DNA from: a bacterium
Lineage (GTDB): Bacteria > SAR324 > JACQKK01
Assembly (NCBI GenBank): GCA_035266845.1
Contig: DATFMP010000103.1
Coordinates: 42,891-106,890 of the forward strand
DNA length: 64,000 nt
Direction: 5' to 3'
Numbering within the stretch: position 1 is the stretch's first letter; each line of letters begins with the position of its first letter. This document shows, in pieces, positions 6,525-60,227 of the stretch. Position numbers and translations under genes: made by a program. The notes beneath the pieces were generated by a model. That model saw only the letters and a program-made list of their open reading frames with translations, made no database searches and was not told the DNA's origin.

Positions 6525-7454
6525 TCAGTCCTCCCCGGCGCCGCCGGCCACCGCCGCCCGGGCCTGCGCGAGGGCATCCGCCGGGGCCTCCCAGCGCTGG
6601 CTGCACCAAGCCAGCACATCGTCCAGCACCGCCTCCCACTCGGCCTCGTTGAACAGCTCGTGGTGCAGGTCGGGGTAGTCGCGGCGGGACTTGTCCGGCG
6701 TCTGGACGCGAGCGTACCAGGCATCCACGGCCTCCGGCGACACCACCTGCTCCTGGCCCGCACGCAGCAGCAGCAACGGGCGCCCGCCCAACTCCGTCAC
6801 GCCCTGGACGGCGCGCACGGCGCGGCGCATGGCCAGGAAGAAGCGCACGGAGATGGAGCGAAAACGCAGGGGATCCGCATGGTACTGCGGCCAGATAGCC
6901 CGACACCCCGTCAGGCGCCAGGGCCGCGTGGCCAGGGGCACCCGCAGGCGCGGGCTGATCAGGCGCAGCACCGCAGCCAGCAATCCACCGCCCCAGGCCA
7001 CCGGCCGCCGCAGCCCCAGGAACGGCGAGCACAACACGAGCCCCTGCACCGCGTCGGGCGGCAGGGAGTTCAGGGCGAGCAGGGTCACCAGCGCGCCGTT
7101 GCTGTGGGCGAGCACCACCAGGGGCGCACCGTCCAGCCGCGGGGTGACGCCCTGCTCCAGCACGGTGCGCAGGCCCGCCACGAGGTGGGCGTAGTCCGCC
7201 ACATCCGCCGGGGCCCCCGCGGAGTGGCCGTGGTGGTAGTGGTCGAACACGTAGGCGGAGACCCCGCGCGCCTGCAGCGCCACCGCGACGTGGTGCCACC
7301 AGCCGGTGTGCTCCGCAAAGCCGTGCGAGATCAGCACATGCAGCCAGGGCCGCGCGGCAGGATAGGCGTGGAAGGCGAGGCGACCGTGCGGCCCCTCGAG
7401 CCAAGTGGTCGCGGGCAGCGCTTCAGTAAGACCGGGGGAAGTGGAGGAGCTCAT
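6525..7454 (-). CDS. alpha/beta hydrolase (lysophospholipase/monoacylglycerol lipase-like)
   Basis: HGFAEHTGWW and nucleophile elbow AHSNGA. The start is uncertain (7454 ATG or 7496). Confidence 0.7.
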   Translation of the reverse strand: MSSSTSPGLTEALPATTWLEGPHGRLAFHAYPAARPWLHVLISHGFAEHTGWWHHVAVALQARGVSAYVFDHYHHGHSAGAPADVADYAHLVAGLRTVLEQGVTPRLDGAPLVVLAHSNGALVTLLALNSLPPDAVQGLVLCSPFLGLRRPVAWGGGLLAAVLRLISPRLRVPLATRPWRLTGCRAIWPQYHADPLRFRSISVRFFLAMRRAVRAVQGVTELGGRPLLLLRAGQEQVVSPEAVDAWYARVQTPDKSRRDYPDLHHELFNEAEWEAVLDDVLAWCSQRWEAPADALAQARAAVAGGAGED

Positions 7455-7812
7455 AGGGCGAGAATTCGGGTTCCTCCGGCGAGTGGTCCGGCGCATCCGC
7501 CGGGTCCAGCCGCACCCGGTCGTAGGGAATGCTGACGGGCAGGGAAACCGGGGCCTTGCCGCCCTCCGGGCTCTCGGCCAGCAGATGCAGGGCCAGCCCC
7601 TGATCGTGCAGGGTCACGGCGATCTGCAGGCCGGGCACGCCCGTGCGCAACTCCCCATGATAGATGTCCGTGCTGCAGGCGTCCAGCTCCTCGATGCCGT
7701 CCGTCGTGCCCACAACGCGCAGCGTGGAGCCGGGACAGGTCAGCCGCACGCGCTGCCCATCGTGGGCATTGAGCCACGCGGAGACGGCCTTGCGGTCAGC
7801 AAATTGCGCCAT
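7423..7812 (-). CDS. hypothetical protein
   Basis: Codon usage is consistent with its neighbours and the ORF is co-directional with the LPS-like block. I recognise no motif. Confidence 0.4.
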   Translation of the reverse strand: MAQFADRKAVSAWLNAHDGQRVRLTCPGSTLRVVGTTDGIEELDACSTDIYHGELRTGVPGLQIAVTLHDQGLALHLLAESPEGGKAPVSLPVSIPYDRVRLDPADAPDHSPEEPEFSPYELLHFPRSY

Positions 7813-7901
7813 TGCGGCTCCTCGGTGCCCATTGTGCCGCGGCTGCCCGCAGCCCGTCCCGCCCGCTCGTGTCCCTGGAGATTACCGATAGCACGGCCGG
7901 C

Positions 7902-7931
7902 TTGACAATGTCATGAGGCGATCCGTATGCT
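7902..7931 (+). promoter_or_regulatory. sigma-70-like promoter TTGACA-N18-TATGCT upstream of the riboswitch
   Basis: TTGACA at 7902-7907 and TATGCT at 7926-7931, placed a few nt before the riboswitch core. Confidence 0.4.
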
Positions 7932-7934
7932 CGG

Positions 7935-8092
7935 CCCGTCGGGTGCCTCTGCGGAGGTCAAAAGGGAATCCGGTGCAATTCCGGAGCTACCCCCGTAACT
8001 GTAAGCGCCAGCCGTTCCGCCGATCACGCCACTGGGACTGACAGCCCGGGAAGGCCGGTTGGAAGGCGCGAGCCAGGAAACCTGCCCGATGT
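7935..8092 (+). promoter_or_regulatory. cobalamin (B12) riboswitch
   Basis: AAAGGGAATCCGGTGCAATTCCGGAGCTACCCCCGTAACTGTAAG core. B12-box GCCACTGGGA...GGGAAGGC. 3' GAGCCAGGAAACCTGCCCG. All in canonical order. Confidence 0.8.
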
Positions 8093-8314
8093 CTTGCTTC
8101 GAATGCCTTCGGAGGGAAGGAGGAAGCTCCATTCGATGGGTCAGCATCGGATGTCTGCCGGCAGGAGCCGGCGCCTGACGCACTCCCTCCCCAGACTTCG
8201 ACGGTTGCTACGCCCGGGCGTGCCGCGTCCGCTGTCGTGCGTTGTGCGCGGCGCGGCGGCGTTTCGCACGATGCCGGGCGGTGGCCGTCGCATCCCCGCG
8301 CGCGGGAGGCGCCC

Positions 8315-9613
8315 ATGGGGTCCGGTCTCACACAGGGGTTGCGCGAGGTGCTGGCGCTCGCGCTGCTGGCGGCATCGGCGGCGACGCTGGCCGCGTGCGG
8401 CGGGCCGTCGAGCGCGGTGGGCACGGCCGCCTCGCAGTTCGCCGCGCCCGTCTCCGCCGGCGACTACCTGTACTGCATCACCAACGTCGGCCACACACTG
8501 ACCGTCTACGACCTGGCCCGGCGCCAGGTGCGGCCGCAGGCCTCGCGTTACCTGGACCTGGACCCGGTGGGGCCCTGGTTCTCCGGCGGGGCCGGCTACT
8601 ACCTCTCCCGGGTGGATACCAGCGGCGCGGGCGCCAACGCCCTGATCCGCTTCGATCCGGTCACGGGCGCGGAAACGGGGCGCCTGCGCTTTCCGGCCGA
8701 CTCGAACCCCAACAGCCTGCTCGTGCTGCCTTCGCACCCCGGCGTGGCCTGGGTGGCGCTGCGGGGCAGTACGTTCGACAACTTCGCCACGGACGGCATC
8801 TCCGTGGTGGACCTGACCACCCTGCGCGACACGGCGTTCTGCGACCTGAACGCCGCCACGGGCACGAGTACCTGCCCCGCGCTCCATCCCGCGGGGGCCG
8901 GCACGCTCACCTCGCCGCTGGGCTTCCAGTGGGATGCCGCAGGCTGCGGCGGGGCGGGCTGCGCCTACGCCGTGGTCAACGACTTCGACAACTCCGGTGT
9001 GCGCAACGGCTGGCTGCTGGCCCTGCAGCCCGACAGCAGCGGCGTGCCCACGCTGAATCAAGGCGTGCCGCTCGGCCGCAACCCCATGCAGGACGTTGTG
9101 CTGGACACGACCCGCAGCGCGCTGTGGGTGGTGAACAACGGCGGCTATGTGCACTACGACGCGAACGGTCAGGCGGGTACGCTGCAGGTGCTGGACACGA
9201 CCAACCTCGCAGCCGACCCGGATTCGGACGGCTTGGCCGGCACCACGCTGGCCATCGAGAGCGCGGCCACCTGCGGCTCGCCGCCCAGCCCCGACCCCGG
9301 CTGCGACCCCACCGGCATCTATACGCTGGACGGCTCCACGGGCTGGTTGACGACCTATCCGAACGACGTGCTGCGCACCGTGGATTTGTCCACGCAAGCG
9401 CTGGGCACCAGTCCGGTGCAGGTCACGGGGCCGTTCTTCCCCGTCGCCGATGACCCGGCCAACCCTGGCAACCCGGCGCTGTTCGCGGCTCTGGGCGGAC
9501 TGGGCCTGGCGCGGCTGGGCGAGCTTAACGCCATCGCCACCACCCTGCTGCGCGACGACCCGCTGGACGCGGGCCCCGCGCCGCTTTCCTGCACCGAATA
9601 CACGGTGCCCTGA
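8315..9613 (+). CDS. lipoprotein, probable beta-propeller (YVTN-like repeats)
   Basis: SD GGGAGG precedes the ATG at 8315. Lipobox LAAC|GG. Gly/Asp/Thr/Val-rich beta-type composition (YLYCITNVGHTLTVYD, ALWVVNNGGY). Confidence 0.7.
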   Translation: MGSGLTQGLREVLALALLAASAATLAACGGPSSAVGTAASQFAAPVSAGDYLYCITNVGHTLTVYDLARRQVRPQASRYLDLDPVGPWFSGGAGYYLSRVDTSGAGANALIRFDPVTGAETGRLRFPADSNPNSLLVLPSHPGVAWVALRGSTFDNFATDGISVVDLTTLRDTAFCDLNAATGTSTCPALHPAGAGTLTSPLGFQWDAAGCGGAGCAYAVVNDFDNSGVRNGWLLALQPDSSGVPTLNQGVPLGRNPMQDVVLDTTRSALWVVNNGGYVHYDANGQAGTLQVLDTTNLAADPDSDGLAGTTLAIESAATCGSPPSPDPGCDPTGIYTLDGSTGWLTTYPNDVLRTVDLSTQALGTSPVQVTGPFFPVADDPANPGNPALFAALGGLGLARLGELNAIATTLLRDDPLDAGPAPLSCTEYTVP

Positions 9614-9634
9614 CCCCTCACGGAAGAGTCACCC

Positions 9635-10093
9635 ATGCCCCGCACTTACCGCCGCCCGCTCCGTTCCGCACTCGTGCCGGCCCTGCTGGCGGTGCTGCTC
9701 GCCGCCACGCTGCTGTCCGGCTGCGGCAGAGACAGCGGCCCGGCAATTATGGGCCACTACACGGACGACTACGGCGGCACGCACGAAATCACGCAAACCA
9801 CCTGGACGGATTCCGGGCCCGGCTATAAGGACGTGTTCCACATCGTCGACTACGACAACCAGCAATTGTATATCCTCGCGCAGAACGACGCGGCCAATGC
9901 GTACAATGCCAGCCTCTACAGCCGCTTCACGTGGACCTATTCGGGTTCCGGACTGTATTACTGCCAGGACCCCTACGACGCCGCGAGCGCGGACGCCGCC
10001 CGTTTGGCCGCACCGCCGGACTCCAGCAACCCGGCAGCGAGCGGGTGCGGGGCCAGCAGCAGCTACCCGTGGACCCGTCTGATTCCGCAATGA
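9635..10093 (+). CDS. small lipoprotein
   Basis: Lipobox LLSGC|GRD. Starts 21 nt after the previous stop. Confidence 0.6.
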   Translation: MPRTYRRPLRSALVPALLAVLLAATLLSGCGRDSGPAIMGHYTDDYGGTHEITQTTWTDSGPGYKDVFHIVDYDNQQLYILAQNDAANAYNASLYSRFTWTYSGSGLYYCQDPYDAASADAARLAAPPDSSNPAASGCGASSSYPWTRLIPQ

Positions 10094-10845
10094 GCCCGCC
10101 CCGCACGGGTCGCCGATGCTGCCGCAGTCCCGCGCTTGCTGTGGCGCTGCTGCTGGCGCTGCTGCTGGCGGGTTGCGGAGGCGACCCCGCGACTCCGGGC
10201 ATCATGGGCAACCGCGTCATCGGCTACGCCCCGGTGGTCGCTTCTGGCGTCACCGCGGCCCAGTGGCCCTGGTTCTTCGACGACGCGCTGGCACTGGGCC
10301 CGCCCGGCGGCACGCTGGACGTGGTCTCGCTGGGCTACGACCCCACTCAGGCGAGCGCCCTGGGCGGGTCGCTCACGCTGGGCCTGGGCACGGCCGGCGA
10401 TGCCACCGCGCGCGCCTGCGCGGTGGACGGGCCCGGCGATGACCTGGCGGTGTACGAGAATGCCTTCGTCACGACCAACCCCGCCACAAGCCTGGCGGGC
10501 ACCTACACGGAGGTGGCCACGGTGGAGGTGTCCGCCGACAACAACACGTGGTACCTGTTCCCGCCCACGGACGACACCGCAATGGACCCCGTGGACCCCG
10601 CGCGCTATGCGAATCTGGCCGGGGTGACGCCCACGGACCAGGGCGGCGACCGCTTCGACCTGGCGGCGCTGATCGCGGCGCACGGACTGCCGGCGGACTT
10701 CCGGGCCTGCTACGTGCGGCTCACGGACGGTGGCACGCTCTACCCGGACTACGGCAACTCGCAGAGCGACCTGTACGATTCGGGCGCGGACATCGACGCC
10801 GTGGAGGCGCTCAACTCCGTGGACGCGCCGGGGCTGACGCCCTGA
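10090..10845 (+). CDS. lipoprotein of unknown function
   Basis: ATGA start/stop overlap with the previous gene. Lipobox LLAGC|GGD. Confidence 0.65.
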   Translation: MSPPRTGRRCCRSPALAVALLLALLLAGCGGDPATPGIMGNRVIGYAPVVASGVTAAQWPWFFDDALALGPPGGTLDVVSLGYDPTQASALGGSLTLGLGTAGDATARACAVDGPGDDLAVYENAFVTTNPATSLAGTYTEVATVEVSADNNTWYLFPPTDDTAMDPVDPARYANLAGVTPTDQGGDRFDLAALIAAHGLPADFRACYVRLTDGGTLYPDYGNSQSDLYDSGADIDAVEALNSVDAPGLTP

Positions 10846-11032
10846 CGGACCGCGCCCCGGGCTGCATCCGGCGGCGGCGGTTGCATCCGCGGCCCATTCC
10901 GCTTACGTAATGCGTGTGAGCAACTGCGGTGCCCGGCGTGCGGCGGGAATCTTGCACGCTTCGCCGCAGAGCCGGTCGGCAGGCCCCAGGCCTCCCGGCG
11001 ACGGCCCGCAACGCATCGCACCGGTGATCTCC

Positions 11033-11470
11033 ATGCTCGGCAGACCGCAATCGGCGCTGGGACGCGCCCTCCTGCTTCTGGCGGCCCTGTGGCTGATGGG
11101 CCTGGGCGGCGGCACGGAGGGTGGCGCGGGTTCCAGCATCCCCATCCCGCAGCAGAACTTCACGGTGACGGTCGCGGACCGCTCCGGGCAGTCCCTGGAG
11201 GCCAAGCGCTTCACCTGGGAAGGCAAGGTGGAGTTCCGCGGCCAGATCGGCAACGCCACGGTGAGCCTGCCCTTCAGCAAGGTGAAGTCCGTGCGCGTGC
11301 AGCCGGTCAACGGCGACAAAACGCCGGGCACGGTGAAGGCCACCGTCACGCTGCGCAGCGGTGAATCGGTGGACGTGGGGATCGACCGCACAAGCAAGTG
11401 CTATGGCGAGACGAAGTTCGGCAACTACGAGATCTTCTTCAAGGACGTGGCCAGCATCGACTTCCAGTAG
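11033..11470 (+). CDS. small secreted beta-rich protein
   Basis: Signal-like MLGRPQSALGRALLLLAALWLMGLGGG, then alternating beta-strand pattern. No family recognised. Confidence 0.5.
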   Translation: MLGRPQSALGRALLLLAALWLMGLGGGTEGGAGSSIPIPQQNFTVTVADRSGQSLEAKRFTWEGKVEFRGQIGNATVSLPFSKVKSVRVQPVNGDKTPGTVKATVTLRSGESVDVGIDRTSKCYGETKFGNYEIFFKDVASIDFQ

Positions 11471-11635
11471 CCCCGCCCCCGGTGAGGACACCCGGGCCAC
11501 GGCACCGGTCCGCGCCCGCTTGTGCTCCCCACCGCACTTCGCCTATAGTATTGGATTGCAGGGCCGCCATTGCCGCTGCCGGGCGCAGGAAGCGCCGGGC
11601 GCGGTCACCTCGCGGCCGGCTCTGCCCCGGAATGT

Positions 11636-11726
11636 GGAGAGATGACCGAGCGGTTGAAGGTGCACGCCTGGAAAGCGTGTAGGTGCCAAAAGTGCCTCGA
11701 GGGTTCGAATCCCTCTCTCTCCGCCA
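11636..11726 (+). tRNA. tRNA-Ser (anticodon GGA), CCA encoded
   Basis: Acceptor GGAGAGA/TCTCTCC. Anticodon stem CACGC/GCGTG with loop CTGGAAA. Long variable arm. T-loop GGTTCGAATCC. Confidence 0.9.
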
Positions 11727-11785
11727 CTTCCCCCCGCCAGACTCCCAGATTCGAACGCAAAGACGGCTAAGGGCCGTCGCTGCCC

Positions 11786-12742
11786 CTACTGCTGCCCGGT
11801 CGGCGGCTGCAGCAGCACGGGCTTGAGGTGCTGCGTGAAGAAGGCGGTGAGGCCTGCGCGGTTGAGGTGGTCTGTATCGAAGAAGTGGCCCGGGTCGGTG
11901 GGCACCTGCGAGAAGTCGCGGAAGGGCACATCCCGCTCGGCCAGCAGATGTGCCACGGATTGGTCGAACCTATCCTCGTTGGGCATGAGCTGACGGAACC
12001 GGGCCGGCACGGGCGTCTTGATGACGACCAGCCCCACCCCGCGGGCTCGCACAAAGTCCACGAACGCCGCGAAGTCGCCCAGGTAGCGTGCGAAGGTGCG
12101 GGCGTCCTCCGCGCCGTCCGGGAAGAGATAGTCGATGCGCTTGCGGTCCGCACTGGCCGAGGGACGGTGTACGCGCTCGAACTGCGCCTCGCCCTCCCAG
12201 ATGTCCCGCTGCAGGCGCTCGCGGTTGTTGATCTTGGAGAAGCCCGTCACGTAGTCGAGCAGCGCGCGGGGATCGATACCCTGGCGCAGGGTATAGGCCA
12301 GCAGGCGCTTGGCCACGGCGGCGTCCAGGGGCGTCCGCCGCAGCAGCTTGGCGTCCGCGAAGCGCTCCTCGTTCCAGGCGCGGGAGTGGAACGCGAACGA
12401 ATCGACCACGTAGAGCACGGCGGCGGTCTGGTGGTCTTCCAGGAAGCGCTCCAGCACGAAGCGGTTGTAGATCACGCCGGTACCGGGCGTGGCCAGGTTC
12501 AGGATGCGCCGCCCGGTTTCGCGCTCCATGTAGGCGTTGAAGTCCGCGAAGTCGAAGGGCATCGCGTGGGAGGCGCCCAGGATCACCCAGTCGTAGCGCC
12601 GCTCGGGGGCGGTCACGATCTTGTAGACCGGATTGGTGTCGCCCGTGCGGTACAGCAGGCTCTCCGCGGCCGCGTACAGCCCCGCGTAGAGCACGAGGCC
12701 GATGGCCACGAACAGCAGCGCGGGCTTGGCGAGATGTTTCAT
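11786..12742 (-). CDS. DltD/SGNH-like O-acyltransferase partner protein (N-terminal membrane anchor)
   Basis: Single N-terminal TM segment. ILGASHA near the N-terminus and FDTDHLN near the C-terminus (Ser...Asp-x-x-His arrangement). Sits immediately downstream of the MBOAT gene. Confidence 0.6.
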   Translation of the reverse strand: MKHLAKPALLFVAIGLVLYAGLYAAAESLLYRTGDTNPVYKIVTAPERRYDWVILGASHAMPFDFADFNAYMERETGRRILNLATPGTGVIYNRFVLERFLEDHQTAAVLYVVDSFAFHSRAWNEERFADAKLLRRTPLDAAVAKRLLAYTLRQGIDPRALLDYVTGFSKINNRERLQRDIWEGEAQFERVHRPSASADRKRIDYLFPDGAEDARTFARYLGDFAAFVDFVRARGVGLVVIKTPVPARFRQLMPNEDRFDQSVAHLLAERDVPFRDFSQVPTDPGHFFDTDHLNRAGLTAFFTQHLKPVLLQPPTGQQ

Positions 12743-28298: not shown

Positions 28299-28371
28299 TG
28301 GCGAGACTCAGAATCGAACTGAGGACACGGGGATTTTCAGTCCCCTGCTCTACCAACTGAGCTATCTCGCC
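28299..28371 (-). tRNA. tRNA-Phe (anticodon GAA)
   Basis: Reverse complement is GGCGAGATAGCTCAGTTGGTAGAGCAGGGGACTGAAAATCCCCGTGTCCTCAGTTCGATTCTGAGTCTCGCCA, a clean cloverleaf. CCA is not fully encoded. Confidence 0.9.
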
Positions 28372-42833: not shown

Positions 42834-43610
42834 CTATAGGCTCGTGACTTGCTGGGTGTGCACCGTCGGATGGTCCTTGAAGAACAGGTCGCGCTCCAGC
42901 TCGAAGCGCTCGCGCAGCAGCAGCCCCCCACGTGGGGAAAACAGGTACAGCGTCACGTGGGTGAAGTACTCCTCATCGGACTGCCGCCGCACCTTGCGCC
43001 GGAACGTGACCGCATCGCGGATGCGCGTGAAGCGGATCCCCAGCTTGTAGGTTTCGGGAAAGCCATCCGTGTTCGTGTTCACGCTGGGCGAGGTCACGAA
43101 CTGGATGGGATTCTTGTCATCGTTCTCAAAGATCGCGAAAAGATAGCCCCCGCGGTTGTTCGAGGGGTCGCCCTGGTTCTGCAGCCGGAAGCTCACTTCG
43201 ATCGTGCGCCCGCTGACCCGAGTGGTGAACGCCGTCACGCGAATCGGCGGCTGGTACAACGCATCGCCGAAGTGCAGCGTGTAGTCCTCGCGCACCTGCG
43301 TGGGCCGGGCGCTCTTGTTGCTGGCCCGCGCCAGAAAGGCATGCTCCTTGGCCTCGAAGGCCTCCTGATTGGCCGAGAGAATCTGCTCGCGCAGGGCGTT
43401 GCGCTCCTGGCGCAGCTTTTCGGTCTCGTGCTCCATCTCCTGCACGCGCTGGAAGCTGAACACATACAGCACGCTCAGCACGGCCAGCACCACCACCAGC
43501 AGGCCCACCAGCACGCCGCCCACATAGACCCGCCACACGGGCACGTTCCAGGACAGCGGGCGCCCGTAGTTCTTGGAAATGATGAAGGTGATGGTATCCT
43601 GCACCCGCAT
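42834..43610 (-). CDS. bitopic membrane protein: cytoplasmic N-tail, TM, coiled coil, unknown C-terminal domain
   Basis: TFIISKNYGRPLSWNVPVWRVYVGGVLVGLLVVVLAVL, then ETEKLRQERNALREQI. Stop lies 8 nt before the bactofilin start. Confidence 0.55.
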   Translation of the reverse strand: MRVQDTITFIISKNYGRPLSWNVPVWRVYVGGVLVGLLVVVLAVLSVLYVFSFQRVQEMEHETEKLRQERNALREQILSANQEAFEAKEHAFLARASNKSARPTQVREDYTLHFGDALYQPPIRVTAFTTRVSGRTIEVSFRLQNQGDPSNNRGGYLFAIFENDDKNPIQFVTSPSVNTNTDGFPETYKLGIRFTRIRDAVTFRRKVRRQSDEEYFTHVTLYLFSPRGGLLLRERFELERDLFFKDHPTVHTQQVTSL

Positions 43611-59773: not shown

Positions 59774-60227
59774 AGAGACGGGCGCGCAGGAAGTCCAAAA
59801 CGCGACCGCTGCCCGCCGGCCCGCAAGGGCCGCGTGGGGAGAGGAAAGTCCGGGCTCCACAGAGCAGGGTGCTGGCTAACCGCCAGGGGGGGCGACCCCA
59901 CGGAAAGTGCCACAGAAAATACACCGCCGATGGCGGGCCGTGCCTCACGGCACGGTGCGTACAGGTAAGGGTGAAATGGTGGGGGCCGCGGTCCTGCTGC
60001 GGCCTGAAAGTAAGAGCCCACCGCGGCACCGGCGACGGTGCCGGCAGGGTAAACCCCACCCGGAGCAAGTCCAAGCAGGCGGCGTTTCAAGGTTGCTCGC
60101 CGAGCCGCCGGGTAGGACGCTGGAGCGTGCCGGCAACGGTACGCCTAGATTGATGGCCGCGACGGCGCTTCACCGCGCCGGACAGAACCCGGCTTAATGA
60201 GGACTTCCCGCGCGTCTTCCCGTCTCT
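59774..60227 (+). ncRNA. rnpB: RNase P RNA, bacterial type A
   Basis: GAGGAAAGTCCGGGCTCCACAGAGCAGGGTGCTGGCTAACCGCC, GGAAAGTGCCACAGAAAATACACCGCC, GGTAAGGGTGAAATGGTG, GGTAAACCCCACCCGGAGCAAG, ACAGAACCCGGCTTA. P1/P2 closing pairs AGAGACGGG.CGCGC.GGAAGTCC with GGACTTCC.GCGCG.CCCGTCTCT. Confidence 0.85.

Follow-up and report, generated by a model that had tools for sequence, protein, structure and literature searches.

A riboswitch-linked, candidate corrinoid-capture cassette resembling BtuG and BtuH in a SAR324 lineage

Introduction

To our knowledge, the only lipoprotein system described for the capture of vitamin B12 (cobalamin) is that of gut Bacteroides, which comprises BtuG, BtuH, BtuJ and BtuK. 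Few microbes make B12 and many need it, and capture by auxotrophs shapes communities. The genes found behind cobalamin riboswitches almost always serve to transport B12 or cobalt, to synthesize B12 or to produce B12-independent isoenzymes. In the Proteobacteria, pairs of the TbpB–TbpA type provide a further case in which a surface lipoprotein is combined with a TonB receptor. BtuG has been reported from Bacteroidetes exclusively, BtuH has been described as a family of gut Bacteroidota, and in full-text literature searches we found no description of BtuG/BtuH-like proteins outside Bacteroidetes. Here we analysed a 64,000 nucleotide stretch of DNA (hereafter the window; positions 42,891–106,890 of the forward strand of contig DATFMP010000103.1, assembly GCA_035266845.1) from a bacterium of the SAR324 lineage JACQKK01, in which a cobalamin riboswitch precedes four consecutive genes, P0001–P0004, specifying three lipoproteins and one further exported protein. 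Based on sequence comparison and structure prediction, we consider it probable that this cassette is a B12-repressed, extracytoplasmic corrinoid-capture operon that feeds the single TonB receptor of its host.

Results

The aptamer of the cobalamin riboswitch lies at 7924–8103 of the window on the + strand, where the Rfam model RF00174 was matched over its full length (model positions 1–189 of 189; 120.2 bits, gathering score 31.5, E-value 1.3e-29). Within it, the B12 box GCCACTG is found at 8028–8034 and the 3′ element AGCCAGGAAACCTGCC at 8071–8086, and the cobalamin riboswitch upstream of the four genes is genuine. A preliminary description of this DNA, made from the letters alone, had read a complete B12 riboswitch here, together with its promoter, B12 box and 3′ element, and all of these were recovered. 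The predicted promoter, TTGACA-N18-TATGCT at 7902–7931 (+ strand), is sigma-70-like and matched the consensus at 10 of 12 positions; the same consensus scan revealed no second such site within 7700–11800, for which shuffled sequences gave an average of 0.2. Its − 10 hexamer reaches into the RF00174 match, at the unpaired 5′ flank of the latter. The aptamer is followed on the + strand by a leader, read from the sequence as the putative expression platform (8104–8314), which contains a Shine–Dalgarno sequence, GGGAGG (8304–8309), five bases 5′ of the ATG at 8315, thereby supporting this position as the start of P0001. Since a search of the + strand 3′ of the aptamer revealed no intrinsic terminator, control would most likely be exerted either at the start of translation or through Rho. 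With its full-length class-I aptamer, its B12 box and a long leader devoid of an intrinsic terminator, the element is similar to the Escherichia coli btuB leader and other Gram-negative RF00174 elements, for which an off-switch on B12 uptake would be the expected logic; in contrast to these, it precedes no transporter, but exported accessory proteins only.

The four genes behind the leader are all located on the + strand. P0001 (8315–9613) specifies an acidic lipoprotein of 432 aa (lipobox LAAC, Cys28) with a predicted seven-bladed, YVTN-type beta-propeller that is BtuG-like, whilst P0002 (9635–10093) specifies an acidic lipoprotein of 152 aa (lipobox LSGC, Cys30) with a single LIC13354-like domain of ∼115 aa. 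P0002 is coupled through an ATGA overlap to P0003 (10090–10845), the product of which is a very acidic lipoprotein of 251 aa (lipobox LAGC, Cys29) belonging with the LIC_13355 family and predicted to form a BtuH-like beta-sandwich. The last gene, P0004 (11033–11470), encodes a basic, beta-rich protein of 145 aa that begins with a signal-like sequence, lacks a lipobox cysteine and is likely to be secreted or membrane-anchored. Isoelectric points of the mature proteins were about 4.05–4.30 for P0001–P0003 (4.17 for P0001) and 8.78 for P0004. These open reading frames (ORFs), with their lipoboxes and the overlap, correspond to those in the preliminary description, and their GC content at third codon positions (0.84–0.91) is typical for real genes of this 68 % GC genome. 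As neither a terminator nor a promoter was found in the 187 nucleotide gap between P0003 and P0004, we infer that P0004 is co-transcribed with the remainder of the cassette.

The nearest described counterpart of P0001 is BtuG, known from Bacteroides thetaiotaomicron as BtuG1 (BT1490), BtuG2 (BT1954) and BtuG3 (BT2095), with structures under PDB entries 3DSM, 8BMX, 8OKV and 8P97. Both are seven-bladed-propeller lipoproteins, both are linked to a cobalamin riboswitch, and both are strongly acidic, as has been reported for BtuG2. The AlphaFold2 (AF2) model of P0001 is indeed a seven-bladed propeller (predicted local distance difference test score, pLDDT, 89.8), in agreement with the propeller-like composition remarked upon earlier. 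Searching the PDB with this model using Foldseek returned the archaeal YVTN propeller 1L0Q at rank 1 and BtuG2, BtuG3 and 3DSM at ranks 2–14 (E-values 1.5e-11 to 6e-10; target-normalized template modelling (TM) scores 0.72–0.75), followed at lower ranks by the tetrapyrrole-binding propellers NirN and NirF, N2O reductase and YncE. When a profile of 42 P0001 family members was compared with the PDB, the nine best matches were all BtuG chains and no other family was reached, with E-values (0.03–0.08) that are not significant on their own. In the resulting alignment, LGRNP...LWVVNNGGY of P0001 is set against GIQPT...MWTITDGGY of BtuG, giving the common motif LW(V/T)xxxGGY or, with the BtuG residue included, hW(V/T)xxxGGY, and two positions that may correspond to corrin contacts of BtuG2 fall within this region. 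A 2026 review names Gln-219 and Tyr-239 among the corrin contacts of BtuG2, and as exactly 20 residues separate the Q of GIQPT from the Y of GGY, we identified them as these two. On this basis only two BtuG2 contacts were mapped, with Asn256 of P0001 set against Gln219 and Tyr278 against Tyr239, and with the BtuG2 numbering deduced from the spacing. Across the 42 family members, the first of these positions is Asn in 36 and the second is Tyr or Phe in all, whilst the lipobox Cys28 is invariant. On the other hand, P0001 differs from BtuG in being about 100 residues longer, in matching no Pfam or NCBIfam family and in residing in a lineage of the SAR324/Lambdaproteobacteria type, whereas BtuG is reported as Bacteroidetes-exclusive. 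Furthermore, its gene lies on a different contig from that of the TonB receptor, whereas btuG adjoins btuB. Thus, P0001 shares with BtuG the fold, the lipid anchor and the riboswitch, and because it is tied to BtuG neither by a sequence model nor by receptor adjacency, we term it BtuG-like rather than a member of the family; it has the look of a remote homologue.

A similar relationship is suggested for P0003 and BtuH (BtuH1/BT1488, BtuH2/BT1956 and the H-domain of BT1490; PDB 7BIZ and 8BLW). The AF2 model of P0003 (pLDDT 93.0) is a beta-sandwich, for which the top Foldseek match, and the sole one at E ≤ 0.001, was BtuH2 (7BIZ; E-value 9.3e-4, probability 0.97), with discoidin and CBM32 domains following in the list. 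Chain B of 8BLW is BtuG1, the C-terminal ∼250 residues of which have been described as a BtuH domain, and it is in this part (residues 377–522 of 8BLW_B) that the P0003 profile A2 found a match, with an E-value of 0.0058 and with the blocks SLG..GG and D(L/F)xxxxN..E..V.VS.D..W in common. No Pfam model covers the matched BtuG1 segment, nor is there a family common to it and 48 P0003 relatives. Within the P0003 family itself, numerous Asp, Asn and Gly positions are invariant. Like BtuH, P0003 is a lipoprotein with a beta-sandwich domain of about 220–260 residues, and its gene adjoins that of a BtuG-like propeller, in parallel to the BtuG–BtuH fusion BT1490. There is also a likeness in architecture, as P0003 relatives are fused to an N-terminal accessory domain and BtuH2 carries PKD domains, although the N-terminal partner in the former case is a LIC13354-like module and not PKD. 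Further differences, a fragile sequence link and a low TM-score, are taken up in the Discussion. The comparison is no more than suggestive of P0003 being a remote homologue of BtuH.

To this can be added three distant P0003 relatives that were looked up together with their surroundings (L043, L044 and L045). In L044:4354–8910, on an unrelated metagenome contig, a cobalamin riboswitch (112 bits) is followed by a propeller lipoprotein of 359 aa, a P0003 relative (40 % identity across 176 residues, E-value 3e-20), a TonB-dependent receptor and a 452 aa protein without a family. The propeller of this locus matched BtuG3 and BtuG2 in plain phmmer searches, with E-values of 3e-5 to 4e-4. Judged by its gene content, L044 is a Bacteroides-type arrangement with a P0003-family protein at the BtuH position. 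In L045:1007–4291 the P0003-family gene is found directly 5′ of Peripla_BP_2, FecCD and ABC_tran genes, which together specify a BtuFCD-type transporter; this contig begins 1 kb upstream of the P0003 relative. The third relative, in L043, adjoins ZnuA-type genes and has no riboswitch.

For P0002 and P0003 we also detected a relationship to an adjacent gene pair of Leptospira interrogans, LIC13354 and LIC_13355. Of 21 P0002 family members, 20 matched NF047669 (the LIC13354 family), all below the curated cut-off, and 43 of 48 P0003 family members matched NF033170 (the LIC_13355 family; best E-value 2e-35), likewise below the cut-off. For the window proteins themselves, P0003 scored 21.8 bits against a cut-off of 120 and P0002 33.8 against 130, and when all four were searched against Pfam and NCBIfam (E ≤ 1), these two weak matches to Leptospira families were the only ones. 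As gauged from sequence, the homology of P0002 and P0003 to the Leptospira pair is distant and robust. The gene order is the same in both and LIC_13355 is an outer-membrane lipoprotein, as P0003 may be, whilst the pairs differ in that P0002 and P0003 fall short of the NF047669 and NF033170 cut-offs and that LIC_13355 has been published solely as a (putative) adhesin, for which binding to laminin, plasminogen and endothelial cells has been reported. The linkage of P0002 and P0003 to a riboswitch in the present lineage suggests a role related to B12 for LIC13354/LIC_13355.

The P0002 domain is abundant beyond this pair, with its ∼115 aa occurring in 961 representative clusters at 50 % identity, often as two to five tandem copies. 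It matched nothing in Pfam or the PDB, and ten multidomain proteins carrying it returned a single fn3 match from Pfam and nothing informative. For P0004 there were 63 homologues, all unnamed, and no relative in the PDB, Pfam or NCBIfam; its N-terminus contains a conserved hydrophobic stretch followed by a Gly-rich linker. Kinship of P0004 with P0002 or P0003 was considered and rejected, as profile–profile comparison aligned the signal peptides only. A further Bacteroides component, BtuJ (DUF4465, PF14717), was matched by none of the four proteins at E ≤ 1.

We next turn to the conservation of the cassette. A large protein collection contained about 50 relatives of P0001 with 39–72 % identity, none of which is named; in public records, relatives carry the labels SAR324 cluster bacterium or Candidatus Lambdaproteobacteria. 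The family was present in 12 of the 19 genomes of the window's GTDB family and in none of the 69 others that make up the 88 species genomes of the phylum. In all nine loci from species-representative genomes that bear a relative, RF00174 was found upstream on the same strand, and five more metagenome contigs and an additional genome conformed to this pattern. Taken together, 16 of the 17 distinct loci carried a cobalamin riboswitch ahead of the cassette in loci the GC content of which ranged from 41 to 72 %, with the aptamers being high-scoring, on the same strand and a few hundred bases upstream. The link is kept even in three contigs (L013–L015) with unrelated flanking genes, and it is more than chance. 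The synteny of riboswitch and lipoprotein genes, which the preliminary description had proposed for checking, holds among relatives. In six genomes of the GTDB family, the riboswitch of the cassette was the sole cobalamin riboswitch detected.

The gene order P0001–P0002–P0003–P0004–tRNA recurs among these loci, with variations. P0002 is duplicated in L009 and present in four copies in L016, where a 500 aa protein (L016:8418–9920) contains four tandem P0002 domains, whilst in L008 (7234–8373) P0002-like and P0003-like domains are fused in a single lipoprotein ORF of 379 aa. In two small genomes (L011 and L025) the cassette is reduced to P0001 and P0004, the latter of which is also retained in L004, L007, L008 and L013. 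The tRNA, which in the window is tRNA-Ser(GGA) at 11636–11726 (+ strand; ARAGORN and Rfam) and marks the downstream boundary of the cassette, has the same place in L004, L008, L011, L013 and L025.

The host genome (4.49 Mb, 96 % complete, 68 % GC) contains only two RF00174 matches. The second (79 bits) is located on contig C20 (C20:460–5581), where it is followed by genes for a DUF71/Diphthami_syn_2 PP-loop protein, a DUF6580 membrane protein, TonB and a TonB-dependent receptor. This receptor, whose best NCBIfam match was TonB-B12 (below cut-off), is the sole Plug-domain protein of the genome; a btuB-like receptor elsewhere in the genome had been proposed for checking at the outset, and this riboswitch-preceded gene is the candidate for it. 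For a diderm, one TonB-dependent receptor is unusually few. Counting the host (G000), exactly one Plug-domain receptor was found in each of five genomes of the family (G000, G002, G004, G005 and G011), with that of G000 being under a B12 riboswitch, and the C20-type receptor operon is a riboswitch target elsewhere in the family as well. As a side observation, DUF6580 may be an inner-membrane B12 importer here. The genome encodes seven B12-binding domains and two Peripla_BP_2 proteins, and neither CbiC nor CobS was found in it; given B12-binding domains without these enzymes, the host looks like a consumer of complete cobamides. CbiC was similarly absent from all 12 cassette-bearing genomes of the GTDB family, and in G011 and G012, where a riboswitch precedes cbi biosynthesis genes, there is no cassette.

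Some further features were noted in passing. In two other genomes of the family a cobalamin riboswitch (G008:C5, locus L032, 115 bits; G017:C91, locus L040, 90 bits) is located 5′ of a gene for an exported protein of 1236–1331 aa; in L040 this large protein is followed by a membrane protein of ∼280 aa and a secreted protein of ∼560 aa, of which only the latter was called in L032. Opposite the riboswitch promoter region of the window lies a divergent gene for a 129 aa protein without a family (7423–7812, − strand), which keeps its position, together with alpha/beta hydrolase, GT9 and GT2 genes, in many relatives (L005, L006, L008, L010, L016 and L017). Elsewhere, at 59790–60211, the window contains an ordinary bacterial RNase P RNA of class A (242 bits), and at 28299–28371 there is a minus-strand tRNA.

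Discussion

The findings are best accounted for by a cassette that would be switched off by B12 and whose products would capture corrinoids outside the cytoplasm. When plentiful, adenosylcobalamin would bind the leader aptamer and turn the four genes off, whilst under B12 scarcity they would be expressed. P0001 would then act as a lipid-anchored propeller of the BtuG type, binding a corrinoid on one propeller face, with P0003 serving as a second binder in the form of a BtuH-like beta-sandwich lipoprotein. For P0002, a repeatable module of ∼115 aa, a role as spacer or accessory to P0003 may be envisaged, and P0004 would be an unanchored or membrane-anchored partner. The captured corrinoid would presumably be handed to the single TonB-dependent receptor, which is encoded apart from the cassette on C20.

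A number of observations weigh against this interpretation. With regard to P0001, generic YVTN propellers (1L0Q, YncE) match the model as well as BtuG does, the profile matches to BtuG fall short of significance, and no Pfam or NCBIfam family was found at E ≤ 1. For P0003, the fit to 7BIZ has a TM-score of only 0.30, with a root-mean-square deviation of about 16 Å over a multidomain chain, and the BtuH-domain match of profile A2 was not reproduced at E ≤ 10 with a broader profile (A5) or with two profiles of disjoint halves (A6 and A7), which is why we take the sequence link as suggestive only. A TonB receptor was found beside the cassette in none of the 17 loci of the lineage, and export of lipoproteins to the surface is not established for this phylum. 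In Leptospira interrogans, the two riboswitches that have been reported are at btuB and a cob gene, and not at LIC13354/LIC13355. Finally, one genome (G004) has P0001 and P0004 and yet no cobalamin riboswitch anywhere, none being detected 5′ of its cassette copy even at permissive thresholds.

This last point would fit with a mere adjacency of riboswitch and genes, the former being a relic or having some other target and the latter being expressed independently. The 212 nucleotide leader, besides having no recognizable terminator, has no significant fold either (the fold of 8060–8330 was not better than shuffles; z = − 1.24). As, however, 16 of 17 loci keep the aptamer in spite of deep divergence and changing flanks, and as six family genomes have no other detectable cobalamin riboswitch, we regard such an explanation as highly improbable. 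The main alternative retains B12 as the ligand and has the lipoproteins face the periplasm, anchored either in the inner membrane or in the outer membrane on its inner leaflet, where they would buffer B12 arriving from the receptor or pass it to a DUF6580 or BtuFCD-type importer. The cassette never adjoins the receptor gene, surface exposure of lipoproteins requires dedicated machinery, the P0003 relative of L045 is encoded next to transporter genes, and the hydrophobic N-terminus and Gly-rich linker of P0004, with no lipobox, could be an inner-membrane anchor. Set against this, the periplasmic step is already served by the two Peripla_BP_2 proteins, the relatives in L044 adjoin a TonB receptor as btuG does, and BtuG, BtuH and the Leptospira protein LIC_13355 have all been reported as outer-membrane or surface proteins, making a periplasmic location unlikely on the whole.

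The adhesin literature on LIC_13355, together with the functional diversity of YVTN propellers, of which NirN and NirF bind other tetrapyrroles, brings up yet another explanation, in which the four genes specify envelope proteins that are regulated by B12, do not bind corrinoids and are needed by the cell only under B12 scarcity, functioning for example in adhesion, in the capture of cobalt or another tetrapyrrole, or in contact with B12 producers. The sequence links to BtuG and BtuH, which are below significance or fragile, fit with such a case. Nevertheless, two methods applied to two genes point to two families of Bacteroides B12 binders, relatives share their operons with either a TonB receptor or a transporter of the BtuFCD type, and the habitual targets of cobalamin riboswitches, as outlined in the Introduction, are of a different kind; hence, we rate this explanation as quite unlikely. 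The reading that we prefer remains that of corrinoid capture for delivery to the C20 receptor.

The preliminary description had proposed an independent set of lipoproteins for corrinoid capture or remodelling outside the Bacteroidota. The idea of capture is strengthened by the conserved riboswitch linkage, the fold matches to BtuG and BtuH2, locus L044 and the lack of any sign of de novo B12 synthesis. The proposed independence did not hold up in the same way: this cassette and the Bacteroides system are probably not independent of each other, given the apparent remote homology of P0001 to BtuG and of P0003 to BtuH. There is no sign of remodelling, as all four products are exported and none is like CbiZ-type or nucleotide-loop enzymes. 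Beyond B12, if the preferred explanation is true, the cassette would be comparable with TbpB–TbpA in that a lipid-anchored binder of a scarce nutrient feeds a TonB-dependent receptor. The two differ in substrate (corrinoid as opposed to transferrin iron) and have no relation in sequence or fold; moreover, the cassette is unlinked from the receptor and no export system was identified for it.

In a broader context, it is conceivable, if rather doubtful at present, that capture of the BtuG/BtuH type is old, widely scattered and separable from its receptor, as opposed to being a speciality of the Bacteroidota, that LIC13354/LIC_13355, which all of Leptospira conserves and which have hitherto been regarded as a hypothetical protein and an adhesin, are a B12-acquisition pair, and that new modules for corrinoid binding or relay are represented by the P0002 domain (at least 961 clusters at 50 % identity) and by the P0004 family. 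The locus also provides a first functional clue, and a testable one, for the LIC13354/LIC_13355 families and for a large, unmodelled family of extracellular domains. Of the points newly brought forward, the most useful are a genome with one receptor and two riboswitches, the bridging locus L044 and the robust tie to LIC13354/LIC_13355. For the organisms themselves, the locus suggests a stripped-down capture system in an uncultured lineage of groundwater and marine habitats, and one which, by virtue of having a single TonB receptor and two B12 riboswitches, would be a clean system for asking which parts of such a system are essential.

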